A stretch of 63,805 bases of DNA, filler included, from Reclinomonas americana ATCC 50394 (Eukaryota): NCBI GenBank assembly GCA_048213135.1. It is 14 parts of 14 records of this genome, joined end to end, with 100 filler letters (N's around TTAATTAATTAA, not from the genome) between each part and the next. Parts side by side here need not be neighbours in the genome. Positions count along the whole stretch, not along the records: positions 26,886 to 36,126 come from AFZH01019181.1; 13 more parts are not named here. One strand, written 5' to 3'. A model generated the notes under the pieces. That model was not told where the DNA came from and ran no database searches. It saw only the letters and a list, made by a program, of their open reading frames with translations. Below are positions 13,779-36,126 of the stretch, piece by piece; position 1 is the stretch's first letter; each line of letters starts with the position of its first letter. The translations under genes were made by a program, and so were the position numbers.

Positions 13779-25908
<12,130 letters not shown>

Positions 25909-26504: not shown

Positions 26505-26785
26505 CGTTCCTCTTGCTGTGCTCTCGTTCCTCTCGCTGTGCTCTCGTTCCTCGCGCTGCGCTCTCGTTCCTCGCGCTGCGCTCTCGTTCCTCTCGCTGCG
26601 CTCTCGTTCCTCGCGCTGTGCTCTCGTTCCTCGCACTGTGCTCTCGTTCCTCTCGCTGTGCTCTCGTTCCTCTCGCTGCGCTCTCGTTCCTCTCGCTGCG
26701 CTCTCGTTCCTCTCGCTGCGCTCTCGTTCCTCTCGCTGTGCTCTCATCCCTCTCGCTGTACTCTCGTCCCTCTCGCTGTACTCTC
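26505..26785. repeat. 20-bp tandem repeat CTCTCGTTCCTC(T/G)CGCTG(C/T)G
   Basis: About 14 copies running into the gap. Confidence 0.92.
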
Positions 26786-26887
26786 NNNNNNNNNNNNNNN
26801 NNNNNNNNNNNNNNNNNNNNNNNNNNNNNTTAATTAATTAANNNNNNNNNNNNNNNNNNNNNNNNNNNNNNNNNNNNNNNNNNNNCA

Positions 26888-29800
26888 GTGTCCCGGTGGA
26901 TATCCGAGTCTTCTTGTGGCTTCATCTTTTTTCGCTTCATCTGCGTATCGCTTCTCCACGATTGCACAATTTTGAATTTTACCACCTTGAGTGTCAAGCA
27001 ATCACACTCCTGCTTCTCTGCTCTGCTTGTGCAGCCACCAGAATGTGATCGGCATCTACGGCATTGTACCAGACTCTCCGAATGGACCAGGCTACTTGAT
27101 GGACTTTTGCGAGGGCGGTTCATTGTCAGACTTGCTATTTATTCGCAGCGAGCATCTCACCAATGTGGAGGTGAGCCTCGCAATTGCTCCTTTTACTTGC
27201 CGTGTGTTTATTTTTCACACTGGTTTCCCGCATCACAGCGTCTCGATTTGTGTATCGACGTTGTGCGAGGCCTGGTAAATTTGCATCGCCACGGCATTGC
27301 TCATCGTGATCTCAAACCGGAGAACGTGCTTTTGGATGCGCATCGCGTCCCTCGTCTCGCCGATTTCGGTCTTGCTGACACTGCATCAACCGCTGCACGG
27401 CTTACCGGTGCCGTCGGTACACCATTGTGAGTGACGTTCGTTGACGAGCAAGGTTTCTTGTTTTCTCACTTGCATCCGTGACAGGTTCATGGCACCCGAA
27501 GTGATGAATGCGGAGGTGAGGAAAAAATTAGACGTGTTACTTTGCTGATGTTGCTCTCCAGTCAACCGTGAATTTATTACGCTCCGCAGCCATACGATCT
27601 GCCTTCCGACATTCACTCTATGGCAATGATCATCTGGGTGGTTTTTGCATCCGAGCTTCATTTTGCGGGACTCGCACCACTGCCGGTGTGTGTATTTCGC
27701 ATATCTTCCGCCTTAATTGTCAACTAAAAGCAATCATCAGCTGGCACGGTGCATTGATCGCGGGGATCGTCCACCATTGACGTCGATTCCCTCTGATCTT
27801 CATGGCATTGTTGCTCGCTGCTGGGTGAGTTGTACGGTTGCGCTATTCCTGTTGTCTCGGTACATCTTGTTGCCATTTTTTCTTTGCAGGCACCGGCGCC
27901 GGCCGATCGTCCATTGAGTGTGGATTTGCTTGCCAGCTTGCTGCAAGTTCGTCAGCTCTGGCATCAAGAAGAATCCATTCGGGACAAAGAGCGTGACCGT
28001 GGAGAAGCACGTCGGCGACCGCGAATTTCAGCATGGACCGAAAGGGAGGAGGTCTTACGGCCGCAGCGACTACGAGAAGAGATCGCCGCGCAAGGAGTGC
28101 AACAGATCCAGGAATCAGGGTTGAGGAGGCGCGAAAACCAATCGGTTGCTGTTGAGCAAGCACGGCTCGCTCAGCGGGAAGCGGAAGCTCGGCGACAGCA
28201 GGAAGCAGATGACCTGCGCCGTCGAGAGGAAGCTGCTGCCCGTGCCGAAGCAGAGCGGTGGCAACAGGAATCGGAGACCGCACGTCAGCGACAACTGCAA
28301 GAGGCCTCTGCAAGAGCGGAAGATGAACAACGTCGACACCAAGAGAAGAATGTCCGCCATCCGGTTTGTATTGCTTCCACAGACGTGCAGGAACGCTGCA
28401 GTTGTATTGATCTTCTTGTCACAGCTGTGCAAGAGATGCGGACAGCCAGCTGTTCCTGGCCAGGAATGCATGCACCACTTTTCAGTTGCGTGGTGTAGAA
28501 ATCATATTCTACAATTATTCGCGCATTGTAGGCTCAAATCTTCTTCCCAGTGGGTATGTTTGCGTCATTCGTGGCACGCCTACGGTTGCTAACGCGTTGT
28601 GTACCTGGCGACAACGACGATTAATGCAGGCTGTGAGTATGAGCACATCTCGTCTGTGTATGTGTGTGTGATCTGCTGTGGCGAAAGAGAAAGTGTGCAT
28701 GTTTGTATGACTTTGTGCCTGTTATGTCCTGCAAACTGATGAGGGTGTGCCTTTACTGACGAGTATGTGGCTTGTGTTGTTTCCCACGCGCGCGGTTTGC
28801 AAACGGCGATGCTTGCATGATTAATGCAGTTTGTGAGTATGAGTACATACATGTATGTGTGCATACGTGTTTGAGTTGTACTTGTTGCGCGAGTTGTTGA
28901 GTGTGTGTTGATCGCTGACTACCTGTGGCATGTGCGTTTGTGTGTGGCGGGGACGATGGCGATGGATGAATGACGGATACAGCCAGTTAAGTATGTGCAC
29001 AAAAGTGTGGAGTGTGTGTGTTTGTGTGTGTCCGTTGTGGTTGTGCGAATGAATGGGTGCGTGTGTGTGTCCTTGGCTGACTGCTCGTATGGTCTGTGCT
29101 TTGTGTGTGATATCGGCAATGGCGATGGATGTATGATCAATACAGCGAGTTGAGTATGTGTGCGTGTTTCGGAGAGTTTGTGTATATGTGTATGTTGTTG
29201 TTCTTGTTGATTTGTGCGCACGGATGAGTGTGTGTGTGTGTCGTAGACTGACTGCTGTGTGGCCTGTGTTTGTTTGTTTGATTGACGACGACCATGGCGA
29301 TGGATGCTTTATGGCAGGTCGTGAGTATGCGTTTATTTGTGTTTGGCGAGAAGATATGTGATTGTCGTTGATTTGTCAAATGGATACGATTGTGTGTGTA
29401 TGTGTTTGTGCGTGCGTGTGCGTTGTCGACTGACTGCCCGTGTGTGTGTGTGTGCTTGTGTGTGTATGACGGCGACATTGGCGATGGATGCATGCTAATG
29501 ATACAGATGGTGACTATGTGTGTGTGGATTGAGTGTGTGTTTGTTGTTATTGTTGTTGTTGTTTTGTGCGAATCGATGAGTGTGCGTCGTCGACTTACTG
29601 CATGTGGTGCATGGATTGTGTGCGATCAATGCAGGATGTGAGTTCGTGCACATGTTTGTTGTTGTGCGAATGGATGAGTGTTTGTCGTCGACTGACTGAG
29701 CATGTGGCCTCTTTCTGTGTCTATGACGACGACAATGGCGTTGTGTGAATCATAATGCAGGTAGTTGAGTGTGTGTCTGTGGAGAGAGTGTGTGTTTGTT

Positions 29801-31017
29801 GTTGTTGTGCGAGTAGATGAGTGTTTCTCGTCGACTGATTGTGCGTTTGGCCTGTGTATTATATATGCAAATGGCGACCATGGCGATGGATGTACGGTGG
29901 TGTAGAGAGTTGAGTGTACATATGTGTTTGTGTGTGTGTGTTGGTGATGTACTATTGCGCGTGTGAATGGATGAATGCTGCGCCGTCGACTGACTTTGTA
30001 TGTGTTCAATGTGATTTGCTTGTTTGACGGCGGCAATGGCGATGGATGCACGATGAAACAGGGAGTTGAGTATCTGTGTGTGCATACATGTGGATAGAAT
30101 GCGATTGTGTGTGCATACGTGTTTGTTGATGTTGATTTGCACGAACAAATGTGTGTGTGTCGTCGACTAACAGTATGTCTGGTGTGTGATTGTGTATAAT
30201 TCGGTGACTATGGCGATGGATACGTGATGCAGGGAGTTGAGTTTGTATGTATGCGCGTAGAAAGAGAGAGAGAGCGTGTCTGTCGATGTAGTTGTGGTTG
30301 TTTGTACGAATGGATGGGTGCCTGTCGTCGGCTGACTGTGCGCTTGTGGCCGGTGTTTTGTTTGTATATGGGTGTGTGACTGTGACAATGACTATGGGTG
30401 CATGATATTGCAGGCAGTTGAGTATGCGTGTACGCGTGCGTGTGTGCTTGTTTGTTGCAGTTGTTTGCGCGAATGGGTGTGTGTTTGTCGTCGACCGACA
30501 GAGTGTGTTGCCTTTGTTGTTTGGGGGGTGTGATGGCGACAATGACGATGGATCCATTATAAATACAGCAAGCTGAGTATGTATGTATGTCTGTGTATCT
30601 ATTGAGAGTATCTGTTGTTGTTGTTGTTGTTGCTAATGTGTACATTTGTGAATCTGTATCTTCGACTGACTGTACATCTGGCCTGTGTTTTGTGTATGAC
30701 GGCGACAATGACGTTGGATGTATGATCAATGCAGTTGGTGAGTATGTGTGTGCATGCGGGTGGAGAGTGTGTTTGTTTGTGTGTGTATGTGCGTAGTCGT
30801 TGTTGTTTTGTTTTGTGCAAATGGATGTGCGTGTATGTCGTCGACTGACTGTGCTATGGCCTATAATTGTGTACGTGACGACGACAATGACGATGGATGT
30901 ATGATCAATACAGCATGTGAGTAAATGTGCAGATGTGTTTGTGTGTCTGTGTGTTTGTTGCCGTAATCTGCGAATGAATGAGTGCTTGTCGTCGACTGAC
31001 TCTGCGTGTGGCTTGTG

Positions 31018-31059
<42 letters not shown>

Positions 31060-31174
31060 TTGTGTGTGTGTATGTGTGTGTGGCGGCGACAACGGCGGCG
31101 AATGCGTGATTATGCAGCGAGTTGAGTGTGCATGTACGCATGTGTGTGTGGCTAAGAGCTGGTGCATGTGTGTC

Positions 31175-31244
<70 letters not shown>

Positions 31245-33425
31245 GATATGTGCGAATGGACAAGCGAACGTCGTCGACTGACAGTGCATGTGGTTTGTTT
31301 TGTGTGACGATCTAAATGTGACGATGGATGCGTAATTATGCAGGGAGTTGAGTCTGTGTGTGTCTACATGTGCATGCATGCGTGAAGAAAGACGGATAGA
31401 GAGAGAGAGAAGAGAGAGTCTGTGCGTGTTGTTCTTGTCGTTGTTGTTTTGTGTGAATTGGCTTGCGTATGTGTCGTCGACTGACAGTTTATGTGATCTT
31501 TATTTGTGTTTGCGTGCCGACGACGACTCTGATGGTCCCATGGGCAAACAGGGAGTTGAGTATATGAGTGTATGCGTGTGGAGATATCGATAGTGTGTGT
31601 GTGTGTGCAAGTGTGTTTGTGTGCGTGTGTGTGTTTGTGTTTGCTGTAGATATGTGTGGATGGATGAGTGTGTGGCATCCACTAACTGTGCATATGACCG
31701 CTGTGTGTGTGTGTGTATGTGCTACGACGACAATGGTGATTGATGGATTATGATGCAGTGGGTGAGTGTGCGTGCACGTTTGAGCGAAGAGTGGGGACAT
31801 GTGTGCTTGTTGCTGTTGTATTATGCGTACGCATGAGCGTTTGCTGTTGACTGACCATGTTCGGCCCTGTGTTTCTGTGTGTGACTGTGACGATGCCGAT
31901 GGATGTACGATCAATGCAGTATGTGAGTATGCGTGTGTTTGCGTGGAGAATGTGTGTGTGTGTGTTTGTTGCTATTGTATTGCGTGTGTCGTTGACTGAT
32001 TGTGCATCTGGTCTGTGTGTATCGATGACAACGGCTATGGATACTTCAGGGAGTTGAGTATGCATGTATGTGGTAGACAGAGAAGAAGAGTGTGCGTGTG
32101 CGTTTGTAGTTGCTTGTGCGTATGGTTGCGTATGTGTCGTCGACTTACTGTGCATGTGGCCTGTGTTTCTGTGCGACGGCGGTAATGGCCACGGTTTCAC
32201 GATGATGTAGGATGTGAGTATGCGTGCATGTAGATGAATGTGGAGTGTATGTGTTTGTTTGTTGAATTGTTTTGTGTGGATGGATGAACGTGACGTCGTC
32301 GACTTACAGCGAAATTGGTTTGTGTTTTGTGCGCGTATGTATGTGTGTGTAACGACGACAAATGGCAATGGTTGCGCAACGATGCAGGGAGTTGAGTATG
32401 TTGTGTGTGCGTGCGTATGTGTGCGTGTTTGTTTGTGTTGCTTTATGTGCATTTCGATAATTCAGAATGTGTGCTGTCGACTGATTGTGCCTGTTGACTG
32501 TGATATGTTGTGTGTGTGTGTGTGTGTGACGGCGACGATGGCGACGGGTACATGATGATGTAGCTGGTGATTATGCGTGGGTTACTGTATGTGTGTGTGC
32601 ACTCGTATGTGTGCTGCGGTTGTTGCTGCTGTTTTCTGCGAGTTGTTGAGTGTGTGTCGTCGTCGACTAACTGTGCATGTGGTTTGTTGTTGTATTCTTT
32701 GCGGTGGGTGCATGAATGTGCAGCAAGTTGAGTTTGCATGTTTGTTGATGTTGTGCTGTTGGAGTGTGTGTCGTTGACTGACTGTGTATGCGGTTTGTGC
32801 ATTTGTTTGCCACTGTGGTAATGACGATGGATGCGCGATGCTGCAGGGAGTTGAGTATGGATGTTTGGAGTGTGTGTTTGTGTATGTGTGTGTGTTCGTA
32901 CGACAGCAATTGTTGTTGTTTTCTTGTGCACACGAATGTGTGTCTACCGTCGACTGACTGCACGTTCTCTACTATTTTGTGTGACACGGCGTCAATCGAT
33001 TGATACACGATGATGTAGGATGTGAGTACGTGAATGTGTATACGTGTTAGTATAGATACATTGTCGTTGTCGCTGTGGCAATGGATGAGTCTGTCTCGTC
33101 GACTGACGGTGTATGTGCCTGTGCTTCATGTGTGACGGCGGCGACGGTATCAACTGTATGATGATGTAGTTTGTGAGTATATATGCAAGTATGTTTGTGT
33201 ACGTGTGTGTGTTTGTTGATGTTGTTTGTTCGACTGACTGCGTGTGGCCTGTTACTGTATGCGTTGCGGCGAAAATGGCGATGGATGCATGATTCATGCA
33301 GGGAGTTAAGTGTGCGCGTGTGTTTGTCATTTTTGCAATCGAGTTTGTGCAAATCGATGAATGTGTGTATTGTCGACTGACTCTTGCTGTGATTGGGCAG
33401 CCGGTTTGTGCTGCGTCCAATCTAA
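26888..33425 (+). CDS. Protein kinase (TKL-like) with coiled-coil tail and a proposed 29-micro-exon C-terminus; N-lobe in gap
   Basis: [66 protein letters not shown] and RCW...DRP span 27035-27960, followed by an E/R/Q-rich coiled coil to ~28350. The kinase call is secure; the extension through 28554-33425 is inferred. Confidence 0.85.
28554..33400 (+). repeat. Degenerate ~165-bp tandem array (29 units), each unit read as an intron plus a 3-nt micro-exon
   Basis: Each unit has GTCGACTGACTG ... GACGGCGACRATGGCGATGGATG ... YAG-NNN-GT(T)RAGT separated by TG-rich variable spacers. Unit spacing is 123-226 bp. Confidence 0.9.
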
Positions 33426-33463
33426 TTCGCCTTCTCTAGCTTACTGAACGCAATCTTTCATGA

Positions 33464-36126
33464 TCATGGTGGCCAGTTCAACAAGGTGTGCAGATGCTCT
33501 TCGTGCAACAGTGCCGAATCAAATTGCTGACGTTCGCGGTAGATGGTATTTGTAGTGCACAGCGCAGAAAATCTGTTGATGTCCTTATCCGCAAATAATT
33601 CTTCGCGTAGATGGCATGGATGTTGCGAATGCGTGCTCAAAAGAAACTGGTATAATTTGTGAACATCGTGTGTGAAGTAATCACTTCTGACTGCTGCTAC
33701 TGCTCCTTTCAGCCCTACATGATGTGGACGTGCTGCGGCTCGACTGATCTCCACGCGCCTGGATGCTTGCCATCCTCTGCACACATGCCTTGATGTTGGT
33801 ATGTAACAACAACTCCCAACTCGTCACAAGTCGATTGCCGCGTCTCGGAAGGACGTGTTTTCATGTTGCCGTGTGCTCATAGGTGCGGCTGAAGCATACG
33901 TGCGTAGGGTAATGCAATGCTCACCCAGCGTACACTGCGAATCTAATTCTACGCAAATGAATGGCGACAATCTGTGGACATCAACAGAGCTGCAGCTGGT
34001 CGACGTTATTGATCAGTGAACTGTATGTAGGCGAGGGGGAAGAGGAGACCGTCACAGACGAAGAGAGTGTAAGGTGAGCGGGTGGAGAAAAGTTGACATG
34101 TGAAAGGAATGAGGGGTGATTTCGATGCTGGGGGAAAGAGGGGAAAGAGCGAGGCTCGAGGGGAGAGTGGATGCAACGGGGCAAAGGGGTGGATGTGAAG
34201 AGAGGACGAGAGTGAGCCGACATGTGGAAGGAATGAGGGGATGATTCTGGGGGATCGAGGAAAAAGAAGCGAGGAGATCCTTGGGAACGAGGGAGGATGG
34301 GTGGACAGAGGGGGGGCATGATGGATAGTGGATACAGAGAAATGCTTGTTGGTGAGTTGTGTGATAGATGTGGGGAGAGTGTGGGATCAGTGGATGGGAA
34401 CGGTTCGGGAATGTGGGGCGAGTTGATGCAGTATAACTGAATGTCTTGTGAGTGGGTGCTGAGAAGGGAAGTGGGGGAAAAGTCAGGGGAGGAAACGGGA
34501 AAGGGAGTGAGGGCAGAGGTAAGTCGACACGAATGAGGGAATCAAGGGTGAATAGACAGACGCGAATGAAATTCAGATGACTGCACTGACAGCGAAGGTG
34601 AGTGGAGATGGGATGACTGAGTGAGTGAGCGCGTGAAGGAGACGAACTGACAGGACGAGCCGAGGTGGGCGAGATGCACGATCGGAGAATGAGATGGGCG
34701 AGTGAGTGAGTGACTGGCGAGGATGGTAGACTGCATGCACATCAGAATTGTAGGGGAGTGGATACTCGTGGAGGGAGTGAGAGAAAAGTATGAAGAGGCA
34801 TGACTGTGAGGTGACACGCATGGTGGGCGGAGTGAACATCGACAAGGGGGAGGGAATGAAAAGTGAGTGGGTGGCAAAGTCGGATGAAATGAGAGGGAAA
34901 GCAGTGGATGCAAGGTAGCGAAGACAGTGGTTGGGATGATTTGAGTGCGTGTGAGTGCTTATGCGGGAGGGTCGATGCGGGAGGAGGAGGAAGAGAAGGG
35001 AGATGGAAGGACAAGAGAGGGAGAAGGAGAGAAAAGAAGAGATGGCAGTCGAGGTGAAGGATTGGAGAAGAGAGAGGGAAAGAGAGCAGAGAAAAAATGA
35101 TGCAGGTTGATGAAGGGTGAGATGAGGGGCATGGAAGGACAAGGGTGTGGGGCGATTGAACACAAGAGAGAAGAGATGGCAGTCGAAGTGGAGTGTTAAA
35201 GAAGAGAGAGACGGAGGGAAAGAGAGAGAATTGATGAAGCGTGATATGAGGGAGTGACGATGGTGGCAGCGTGAGGGGTGAGTTTATGCGTGGAAGATAT
35301 GTAAGGTAGGCGACATCATGAATGCATTTGAGAGTGAGTGGATGGAGAAGGAGGCGATACGAGACGAGATGCGGTGATGCAGAAGCAGGGAATGTGTTTT
35401 GAGATGATTGAGTGGATGTGTGAGTGGTGAGGACGGTGTGAGGCGATGCGTAATGCGGAGTGAGATTGGTGGGCGGAAGAGACTGGGAATGAGGAGTGAG
35501 ATGCAGAAATGAGAGAGGAGAGAGAGGAGAGGGAGAGACATGTACAGTGCGCGAAAGGGCGTTCCTATACTTGTACCTCAGTCCTCCCTCGGAGAATGAG
35601 AAGTGGGTGAACATGAGTGAGTGAGGATATTTGATGGAGAGAGGGAGGGTGAGAGATGGAGAAGCAGAAGTGGAGGTGCGGTGCGATGGGAATGTTGGGA
35701 GTGCATGAGCAAGAGAGTGGATGAGTATGAGAGTGCCAACTGTGAGTGAGGACGTTTGATGGAGAGAGGGAGGGTGAGAGAGATGGAGAAGCAGAAGTGG
35801 AAGTGTGGTGCGATGGGGATGTTGGGAGTGCATGAGCAAGAGAGTGGATGAGTATGAGATGAGCCAACTGTGAGTGAGGATGGTTGATGGAGAGAGGGAG
35901 AGAGAAAGGGAGATGGAGAAGCAGAAGTGGAGGTGCGGTGTGGGGATGTTGGGAGCGCATGGGAAGTGAGCGGATGAGTATGAGAGTGCCAACTGTGAGT
36001 GAGGATGTTTGATGGAGAGAGGGAGAGTGAGAGATGGAGAAGCAGAAGTGGAGGTGCGGTGCGGATGTTGGGAGTGAATGAGCAAGTGAGTGGATGAGCA
36101 TGAGAGTGCCAACTGTGAGTGAGGAT
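33464..36126 (-). CDS. Hypothetical protein, 3' exons; upstream part in CT-rich introns and the gap
   Basis: Terminal exon ...GLKGAVAAVRSDYFTHDVHKLYQFLL...HLHTLLNWPP* (33464-~33715) with upstream exon-like segments to ~34020. The large upstream region is pyrimidine-rich on the minus strand, like introns of the other minus-strand genes. Confidence 0.45.
35620..36126. repeat. ~120-bp minisatellite
   Basis: About 4 copies of GAGATGGAGAAGCAGAAGTGGAGGTGCGGTGCG...GCCAACTGTGAGTGAGGAT. Confidence 0.88.

Follow-up and report, generated by a model that had tools for sequence, protein, structure and literature searches.

Can exons of only 3 nucleotides (nt) be spliced one after another out of a tandem repeat, and why should the last base of each such exon match the type of donor that follows it? 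This question is raised by a locus in Reclinomonas americana ATCC 50394 (assembly GCA_048213135.1). The window, by which we mean the whole stretch of DNA that was analyzed, comprises 63,805 bases from 14 contigs joined by 13 spacers (44 N, 12 bases, and 44 N). On the contig at positions 26886-36126 lies an array of repeat units, each of which carries an acceptor, a triplet that could serve as a micro-exon, and a donor. A sequence-only reading had reported that triplets ending in A are always followed by a shifted donor and all other triplets by a normal one, and had taken this pattern to fit selection on pairing with U1 small nuclear RNA (snRNA) and to support functional splicing. On balance, we lean toward a view in which the array is a tandem micro-exon cassette in the 3' part of a protein kinase gene, is spliced stepwise, and has two donor types, the shifted one having a single origin and having retained its A thereafter.

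The covariation was examined with a regular-expression scan for YAG-NNN-donor over positions 28500-33500. The scan returned 30 matches, 29 of which fall at the repeat period. The remaining match at 30098 (AAT/GCGATTGT) was dropped because it lies 36 nt into intron 10, outside any unit context. Across positions 28630-33311, bounded by the first triplet and the final donor, the reported association proved to be exact. All 16 triplets ending in A (class A) precede a shifted donor, which is GTTGAGT in 13 units, GTTAAGT in two (28983 and 33302), and GCTGAGT in one (30569). The 13 triplets ending in another base (class N; T in eight, G in four, and C in one) precede GTGAGT in 11 units, GTGACT after ATG at 29507, and GTGATT after CTG at 32564. 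The 2x2 table (16/0/0/13) yields a Fisher p of 1.5e-8 when the units, which are copies of one repeat, are counted as independent. Outside the array, A precedes the heptamer G[TC]T[GA]AGT in only 3 of 14 cases (GTGAGT in 26 of 84), and therefore the link between A and the shifted donor is not intrinsic to the heptamer.

The repeat unit is ~125-225 nt long, with a period of approximately 160 nt, and its blocks occur in the same order in all aligned units. The donor GT(T)GAGTATG is followed by variable GT-rich DNA with microsatellites, then by TGTGCGAATGGATGAGTG, TGTCGTCGACTGACTG, and GGCCTGTG with further GT-rich DNA, and the series closes with a G/A/T-rich GACGGCGACAATGGCGATGGATGCATGAT-A-TGCAG block. 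Read as a composite intron, this arrangement opens with a donor, continues with a conserved TGCGAATGGATGAGTG block and the branch motif GTCGACTGAC, and reaches a YAG acceptor after ~65 AG-free nt that contain GACGGCGACAATGGCGATGGATG. The spacer between acceptor and donor is 3 nt in 29 of 29 units, and no other spacer of 0-12 nt occurs on the + strand of the array. A scan over this range of lengths found 27 spacer-3 matches in the array, its pattern having missed the GACT and GATT donors, and only two such matches elsewhere in the window.

The units are well diverged from each other, with flank identities of 0.60-0.62 and a nearest neighbor at 0.73 at most. Similarity is independent of distance along the array, with neighboring units being no more alike than distant ones. 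Pairwise identities computed with free end gaps were discarded because these produced spurious 100% matches. Within the window, two unit motifs are specific to the array (22 of 23 and 17 of 20 matches), and the others are near-matches with one or two mismatches. A metagenome scan with two unit motifs hit 13 loci with one match each, none of which had an AG-N3-donor junction or a repeat, and these matches are due to chance.

Several features indicate that the units are under constraint as splicing substrates. The acceptor AG is intact in all 29 units (2.0 bits at both the A and the G) and is always preceded by C or T at position -3 (1.3 bits), whereas the three triplet positions hold 0.3, 0.1, and 0.5 bits. 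All 29 donors have G at +1 and 28 have T at +2, the exception being the C of the GC donor. The donor variants are of a tolerated kind, with the GC change falling at a position that is unpaired in the shifted register and the G/A alternation falling opposite U1 position 6. GTGAGT occurs within the array at donors only. A branch-like motif is present in every intron (CT[G/A/T]A[C/T] in 28 and CCGAC in one). Each donor is also predicted to form a U1 duplex of -4.0 to -13.0 kcal/mol in one register, based on the human U1 5' end that is used for all energies reported here.

The most telling feature is an exclusion zone. From position +8 relative to the branch A to the acceptor, the 29 introns hold no AG in 1638 nt, where 95 are expected from composition and each of the 15 other dinucleotides is seen at least 24 times. 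The 5' parts of the same introns contain 88 AG dinucleotides in 2321 nt. When neutral decay of an AG-free consensus was simulated with change rates of 0.15-0.30 per lineage, new AGs numbered 27-50 on average, and the minimum was 13 (2000 runs per rate). In 3' splice-site choice, the AG used is the first one past the branch point, and an AG-free interval is expected because that AG serves as the acceptor. We know of no other process that would produce such an exclusion. Furthermore, there are no dead units. The 29 introns range from 96 to 223 nt and none is of double length, and therefore every unit is undecayed.

The array introns thus carry the elements of U2-type GT-AG introns, namely GT or GC with a U1-complementary extension, YAG, and a branch motif without an intervening AG, but they have no pyrimidine tract. 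Functional splicing of each unit is a well-supported prediction from these sequence features, and this part of the sequence-only reading holds. However, its main support is the AG exclusion zone, the invariant AG and G+1, and the fixed 3-nt spacer, rather than the covariation from which it had originally been argued. The anatomy, the conservation, the lack of AG, and the pairing energies are direct results, and from there we infer the excision of the introns, the retention of the triplets in the mRNA, the order of splicing, a coding role for the triplets, and a single origin of the shifted class.

Some observations weigh against this interpretation. The array introns are 2-3 times longer than the five introns of the kinase gene (about 60-75 nt), lack a pyrimidine tract before the acceptor, and separate the branch motif from the AG by 50-81 nt (range 37-118). 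In addition, unless a candidate intron at 28364-28424 with a weak donor is removed, the kinase frame ends at a stop at 28496, 5' of the array, and the array could then lie in a 3' untranslated region. The early stop, the missing pyrimidine tract, and the long branch-to-AG distance, together with the abundance of tandem repeats in this genome, are what might be expected if the array were an unspliced minisatellite that arose from an intron-exon-intron fragment, carries fossil splice signals, and resides in an intergenic or untranslated tail. We judge this very improbable. Fossil signals should decay, and yet all 29 units, whose identity is only ~60%, preserve AG and G+1, AG is absent where the decay simulations create dozens, and the spacer is constant with no unit lost. 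If the array is nevertheless unspliced, its conservation pattern demands another explanation.

Other readings of the array were considered and set aside. GTATGT is not the true donor, as it is present after the junction in just 5 of 29 units. No Rfam family reaches its gathering score in the window and none appears at E up to 1 in 28300-33500, a tRNA search found none, and a motif search found no dinoflagellate spliced-leader relic. The words CTGA and ATGATGA expected of a snoRNA host are present, but their order and spacing are wrong and Rfam gives no support. Long open frames cross the array on the minus strand, but they have no significant Pfam match and are expected from the C/A-rich composition. 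A structured RNA is likewise disfavored, as the eight of 29 introns that are no longer than 150 nt fold no better than shuffles (z -1.82 to +1.89).

A 7-bp stem (GUCGUCG/CGRCGAC) around the branch site was evaluated separately, with 85.7% of cells pairing in 24 of 29 introns. Introns I01 and I02 (without the 12-nt motif) and I06, I24, and I29 (short or truncated) were left out. The stem was rejected because it shows no covariation above shuffles (63 of 500 reach it) and because the motif is 3-periodic, such that 74-78% of cells still pair when it is slid by 3. An example is 29684-29690 with 29728-29734, where GUCGUCG lies just 5' of the branch motif and CGRCGAC lies in the 3' block. In such a stem, if it formed, the branch site would be looped out, with a shorter path from there to the acceptor.

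We next consider why the last triplet base matches the donor type. A shifted (+1) register for pairing between the 5' splice site and U1 snRNA was reportedly described by Roca and Krainer in 2009. The U1 5' end used in our calculations is the human one as printed in PMC4856993, which may not match the U1 of this organism and to that extent limits the energies. Class N donors average -8.0 kcal/mol when paired canonically and 0 when shifted. Class A donors score 0 in the canonical register in all 16 cases and -4.0 to -8.3 (mean -6.4) in the +1 register. The two registers therefore separate by class, with the reservation that a human U1 stands in for the native one. In the +1 register, the A at -1 and the G at +1 pair with U10 and C9, the U at +2 sits opposite C8, and positions +3 to +9 form seven pairs. 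The A at -1 is worth -1.4 kcal/mol over C or U through the A:U10/G:C9 stack. The sole T-to-C change among class A donors falls at the unpaired +2 position, and the two G-to-A changes fall where ordinary donors have R. Donors of both classes are frequently extended, to GTGAGTAT or GTTGAGTAT, with AT following GAGT in 9 of 13 class N and 9 of 16 class A units. This extension pairs to the very 5' end of U1 and is lacking in the five kinase introns.

The proposal that class A donors pair with U1 in a +1 register is thus borne out in that they are predicted to pair only there and to gain stability from the A at -1, but the preference for A is not what pairing alone predicts. A G at -1 would give -6.3 kcal/mol in the +1 register, or -7.8 to -9.2 if a +3 bulge register were used instead, and yet G is found at this position in none of the 16 class A units. 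Because G would pair as well or better, U1 stability alone cannot explain why A is present 16 times and G never. The bulge (+2/+3) register is also an alternative for the same class A heptamer. A further difficulty is that cleavage at A/GU would leave shifted donors with poor +4 to +6 positions for U6.

The latter point suggests another way to account for the A. U5 loop I binds the exon, and its uridines pair with purines. If shifted donors are weak for U6 because +4 to +6 read GAG, then the A at -1 might have been selected through exon contacts with U5. This would account for the purine-rich triplets of class A (GGA, CGA, AGA, and CAA), which have a purine at position 2 in 13 of 16 cases and A at position 3 in all 16, compared to purines in 6 of 13 and 4 of 13 at these positions in class N. 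It would also fit the finding that U1 energetics do not favor A over G. However, G can wobble-pair with the U5 uridines as well, which leaves the missing G unexplained, and the purine richness may simply be inherited from a GGA founder. We assign only a small chance to this explanation.

Donors that depend on a shifted register are documented for human sites, where ACAGUCAAGUAUA is a validated test oligonucleotide (PMC4856993). Aligning this oligonucleotide to the printed consensus oligonucleotide would put A at -1, consistent with class A. Class A donors resemble these sites in that GU precedes U/C and RAGU, in that canonical complementarity is slight, and in the way the -1 A and +1 G take the places of the -2 A and -1 G. 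Like the known sites, they are predicted to combine weak canonical pairing with a stable +1 helix. The array donors differ in having one mismatch rather than two, plus a G.U pair at the R position, and in occurring as 16 copies in one array.

How often the shifted class arose can be addressed from the flanks. A tree of the units was built from the 75 nt upstream of YAG and the intron after the donor, with the junction excluded. This tree recovered neither a division of the units into two clades nor support for independent origins. It is star-like, with 1 of 26 inner branches supported and a median terminal branch of 0.28, and its supported branches force only one label change, which leaves a single supported independent contrast. 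The best tree requires 11 label changes (bootstrap 5-95% range 8-11), compared to a mean of 9.9 for shuffled labels (451 of 500 shuffles as low). Neither class forms one clade in any of 200 bootstrap trees, and constraining class A to a single clade lowers the log-likelihood by 22 units, with a p of 0.10 in the approximately unbiased (AU) test. Identities within and between classes are 0.607 versus 0.612 upstream, 0.617 versus 0.623 downstream, and 0.604 versus 0.604 combined, and the permutation p values for a class signal are 0.76, 0.85, and 0.52, respectively. Likewise, units of the two classes are mixed along the array as expected by chance (14 runs versus 15.3 expected).

Taken at face value, the many changes on the best tree, the failure of either class to form a clade, the cost of the two-clade constraint, and the random interspersion could mean that the A/shifted state arose many times independently as compensated pairs, driven by selection on U1 pairing. 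We find this improbable. The tree is a star whose supported branches force one change, and the AU test does not reject a single clade. Each switch between classes requires an indel plus a substitution, and intermediates are seen in none of the 29 units. The class A triplets also share the consensus GGA (8 of 16), which would be unexpected after many origins, and the base at exon positions 1 and 2 depends on class (p 0.05 and 0.004, respectively). Any signal in the flanks would also be erased by short-tract gene conversion or by an amplification burst. The GGA consensus suggests common descent, and class A may thus have had a single origin. The 11 changes on the best tree and the absence of class signal in the flanks stand against such an origin, but an amplification burst from two nearly identical founders, or short-tract conversion, fits both the tree and the junction data.

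If class A arose once, the link between A and the extra T could be purely historical, having hitch-hiked from one copied GGA/GTTGAGT unit whose descendants are spliced but kept their A 16 times out of 16 by chance. The shared consensus and its association with class, the single supported contrast, and the AU result are all in keeping with this idea. Moreover, inheritance predicts that G is never seen at -1 even though it would pair at least as well, and optimization does not. At the neutral retention of 0.79-0.84 measured in alignable flank columns, the probability of retaining all 16 is 0.02-0.06, a range that weakens the case for selection. However, the first two exon positions of these units still show the consensus in just 21 of 32 instances, compared to 16 of 16 for the A at -1 (Fisher p 0.009), and at the corresponding retention of 0.66 the probability falls to 0.0013. 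Hitch-hiking further requires that two founders were nearly identical and were then amplified in a burst, as the flanks carry no class signal. We therefore consider pure hitch-hiking unlikely, though it deserves more weight than multiple origins.

Two further observations concern the base at -1. A is absent at this position in class N (0 of 13), which has a p of 0.09 if A is taken at its local frequency and 0.008 if the frequency is that seen before GTGAGT in the rest of the window. Both donors with a mutant +5 position (GTGACT and GTGATT) follow a G at -1, which has a chance probability of ~0.08 (4/13 x 3/12, calculated by hand). There is moderate evidence that the A at -1 was kept by purifying selection once the shifted class arose. 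There is also moderate evidence for selection on the base before the donor in a manner that matches the donor type, which is compatible with either U1 pairing or U5 exon contacts. The covariation would then mostly reflect inheritance and purifying selection rather than repeated compensatory change. Selection as originally proposed is in this way retained in the form of A retention, but its repeated action is unsupported by a tree with one supported branch and one contrast, by the AU result, and by the shared GGA.

These results can be assembled into a model for the stepwise-spliced cassette that we favor. The ancestor would have had one 3-nt exon between two introns, and tandem duplication would have copied a segment that extends from the first intron's 3' block to the second intron's branch site. 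Because such a unit covers the 3' block, the 3-nt spacer, and the 5' part of the following intron as far as the branch site, each junction between repeats would form a complete composite intron. The spliceosome would take out the 29 introns singly, in the simplest case from 5' to 3', as happens in recursive splicing, with each step leaving 3 nt and exposing the next donor. The reading frame would be preserved at any copy number. The units would be old, with purifying selection keeping each of them spliceable while the triplets drift almost to randomness. NNN/GTGAGTAT donors would pair with U1 in the canonical register, whereas NNA/GTTRAGTAT donors would do so only when shifted by +1, with one U x C mismatch within the helix. 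Most likely, the shifted type had one origin, as GGA/GTTGAGT, and spread by duplication, after which the A at -1 would have been retained by selection.

The proposed mRNA would read from the upstream exon into GCT TTT CCA CGA GTC ... (87 nt) and then into CCGGTTTGT. In its fullest form, the model has 4.7 kb removed in 29 steps by a spliceosome that otherwise handles ~70-nt introns, leaving a 29-residue peptide, AFPRVMDVRGGAQLHRGGWYGDGLQGDFG, in phase 0, with 16 shifted-register U1 donors maintained by selection. We offer this more specific version tentatively, as something that might well be true but on which we would not rely. The repeat might be tolerated in the coding end of a kinase gene because each unit would be an autonomous short intron. 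The length of the resulting "scar peptide" would track copy number, with one freely evolving codon per step. Perhaps donors could also skip to later acceptors and thereby vary the peptide, which would make the array a frame-safe combinatorial cassette of single codons.

Coordinates of the array, its triplets, and the surrounding features are listed in the table below.

Table. Features of the micro-exon array and the adjoining part of the kinase gene, in window coordinates.
Feature	Position	Strand	Description	Basis
Protein kinase gene, 3' part	26886..28363	+		translation and sequence reading
Direct repeat, left copy	28361..28380	+	20 nt, CCGGTTTGTATTGCTTCCAC; straddles candidate donor CCG/GTTTGT	
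Candidate intron	28364..28424	+	61 nt, GTTTGT...CTTCTTGTCACAG; weak donor CCG/GTTTGT	inferred from sequence
Candidate exon	28425..28553	+	129 nt, 43 codons, Cys/His-rich, open in phase 0	sequence; translation (19 residues not printed)
Intron 0	28554..28629	+	76 nt, GTATGT ... GCTAAC ... AATGCAG	sequence
Array	28630..33304	+	29 triplets with 28 introns of 120-223 nt between them	regular-expression scan, alignments
Triplet 1	28630..28632	+	GCT, donor GTGAGT	scan
Triplet 2	28830..28832	+	TTT, donor GTGAGT	scan
Triplet 3	28983..28985	+	CCA, donor GTTAAGT (shifted)	scan
Triplet 4	29146..29148	+	CGA, donor GTTGAGT (shifted)	scan
Triplet 5	29318..29320	+	GTC, donor GTGAGT	scan
Triplet 6	29507..29509	+	ATG, donor GTGACT	scan
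Triplet 7	29635..29637	+	GAT, donor GTGAGT	scan
Triplet 8	29761..29763	+	GTA, donor GTTGAGT (shifted)	scan
Triplet 9	29906..29908	+	AGA, donor GTTGAGT (shifted)	scan
Triplet 10	30062..30064	+	GGA, donor GTTGAGT (shifted)	scan
Triplet 11	30233..30235	+	GGA, donor GTTGAGT (shifted)	scan
Triplet 12	30414..30416	+	GCA, donor GTTGAGT (shifted)	scan
Triplet 13	30569..30571	+	CAA, donor GCTGAGT (shifted, GC donor)	scan
Triplet 14	30735..30737	+	TTG, donor GTGAGT	scan
Triplet 15	30914..30916	+	CAT, donor GTGAGT	scan
Triplet 16	31118..31120	+	CGA, donor GTTGAGT (shifted)	scan
Triplet 17	31344..31346	+	GGA, donor GTTGAGT (shifted)	scan
Triplet 18	31552..31554	+	GGA, donor GTTGAGT (shifted)	scan
Triplet 19	31759..31761	+	TGG, donor GTGAGT	scan
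Triplet 20	31920..31922	+	TAT, donor GTGAGT	scan
Triplet 21	32050..32052	+	GGA, donor GTTGAGT (shifted)	scan
Triplet 22	32211..32213	+	GAT, donor GTGAGT	scan
Triplet 23	32388..32390	+	GGA, donor GTTGAGT (shifted)	scan
Triplet 24	32564..32566	+	CTG, donor GTGATT	scan
Triplet 25	32724..32726	+	CAA, donor GTTGAGT (shifted)	scan
Triplet 26	32847..32849	+	GGA, donor GTTGAGT (shifted)	scan
Triplet 27	33019..33021	+	GAT, donor GTGAGT	scan
Triplet 28	33170..33172	+	TTT, donor GTGAGT	scan
Triplet 29	33302..33304	+	GGA, donor GTTAAGT (shifted)	scan
Last intron	33305..33400	+	96 nt	5' part matches the unit up to branch motif GTCGACTGAC
Direct repeat, right copy	33401..33420	+	first 20 nt of the last exon, directly after the last acceptor	
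Candidate last exon	33401..33439	+	12 residues (not printed), then TAG at 33437-33439	sequence, translation

The gene that would host the array lies directly 5' of it on the + strand. Its kinase exon at 27239-27427 matches Pfam PF00069 with an E value of 1.2e-15. The kinase exons are interrupted by five short GT-AG introns whose borders were set by eye, with donors GTGAGC, GTGAGT, GTGAGG, GTGTGT, and GTGAGT and with C/T-rich 3' ends. A long exon rich in E, R, A, and Q follows and ends in ...EKNVRHP. HECT and PP2C domains are encoded on other contigs of the window.

Connecting this gene to the array depends on the candidate 61-nt intron, whose acceptor is the sole choice that gives a plausible length and keeps phase 0. 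Its removal would bypass the in-frame stop at 28496-28498. The candidate exon that precedes the array has no significant Pfam match (best E 0.055), and a protein search found no relatives among longer proteins. HMMER against 1.84 billion representatives returned one weak, coiled-coil-like match (E 3.8e-5), and no annotated protein containing the triplet peptide turned up in the protein searches with this exon. Intron 0 resembles an ordinary intron of the kinase gene, and in the alignment context only its 3' block is common to the repeat units. The last intron has its own 3' end, TCTTGCTGTGATTGGGCAG, just 20 nt past the branch A, with the acceptor GGGCAG. A gene model can be proposed in which every junction, through 29 triplets and the last exon to the stop at 33437, would be in phase 0.

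None of the 29 triplets is a stop codon. No class A triplet begins with T (0 of 16), although a T would yield TGA or TAA in 13 of them, compared to 5 of 13 in class N (hypergeometric p 0.037, worked by hand). The missing stops and the missing initial T in class A give a weak hint that the triplets are read as phase-0 codons. A 119-codon open frame without a Pfam match lies at 33464-33823 on the minus strand, ending ~30 nt 3' of the predicted kinase stop, and may be the end of a convergent gene.

The direct repeat listed in the table brackets the array and 270 nt upstream of it. The two copies are identical at 16 of 20 positions, and the left copy is the best match in 26886-28629, a score reached by 1 of 2000 shuffles. 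The 5 kb between the copies may thus be an insertion or duplication that turned intronic. Skipping all 5 kb would restore ...RHP-PVCAAS..., which is close to the read-through product ...RHPVCIAS....

Long introns in Drosophila undergo recursive splicing at intronic ratchet points (PMC8605326). As at ratchet points, the internal acceptor-donor pairs of the array would allow stepwise removal, with a donor re-presented at the new exon end. Ratchet points, however, have AG abutting GT and a zero-length exon, whereas the array has 3 nt that would stay in the mRNA and no spacer-0 match, although the mechanism may still be stepwise. The array also has 29 sites with a ~160-nt period in a tandem repeat, and the ordinary introns of this organism measure about 60-75 nt. 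Animals have single 3-nt micro-exons, such as Drosophila homothorax micro-Ex8 (PMC7392893) and RPS24 (PMC12686416). These too comprise one codon and keep the frame whether included or skipped, but they are single, conserved, and regulated, whereas the triplets are 29 in tandem and nearly random, with inclusion predicted from sequence.

Schistosome micro-exon genes (MEGs) contain runs of symmetric exons of 3-81 bp that have been proposed as a source of protein variation (bioRxiv 10.1101/2023.06.21.545858). The array shares with MEGs a run of very short symmetric exons from which any subset is frame-safe. MEG exons are mostly longer than 3 nt, are flanked by long introns, do not derive from a single tandem unit, and code for secreted proteins. 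In contrast, the host of the array is a kinase gene with a coiled-coil-like tail, and the introns are the repeated part. Among the literature matches listed, as represented by titles and the starts of abstracts, none describes a tandem array of 3-nt exons.

Introns can be gained by tandem duplication of a segment resembling a splice site, and others are born from transposons ("introners"). As in such cases, new donor-acceptor pairs would make the duplicated DNA of the array intronic, and a direct repeat brackets the putatively inserted DNA. The array differs in that its unit already held a whole micro-exon cassette, which was copied 28 times in place. No dispersed copies are seen within the window, and no terminal inverted repeats were noted.

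If the triplets are truly spliced as exons, the array would comprise a long series of exons of the minimum size that still keeps a reading frame intact. It would raise the question of how a spliceosome recognizes a 3-nt exon on which U1 and the 3'-splice-site complexes cannot sit together, and it would allow a test of whether long DNA in the genes of short-intron organisms leaves by stepping stones. It would also show how tandem duplication makes many introns at once and bear on the use and maintenance of non-canonical U1 registers outside mammals. The 16 shifted and 13 canonical donors in otherwise equivalent units form a ready-made comparison set. In addition, the AG-free interval provides a measure of how strongly 3' splice-site scanning constrains sequence.

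A second tandem repeat with intron-like signals is present at 14381-14941 on the + strand, where five copies of a 114-nt unit occur. Each unit consists of CTCCAAA (7 nt), GTGAGTGG...CTGCTACAG (41 nt), TGATCAGAGTCCCACCAAAAGG (22 nt), and GTACAGAG...CTCTAACAG (44 nt), and its putative exon content of 29 nt per copy is not a multiple of 3. Other repeats include a 20-mer present 14 times at 26505-26785 and a 127-mer present four times at 35617-36126. Many contigs end in simple or purine/pyrimidine-skewed repeats such as (GA)n, (TCTG)n, and 36 copies of ACCTCGTC, which points to a fragmented and repeat-rich assembly.

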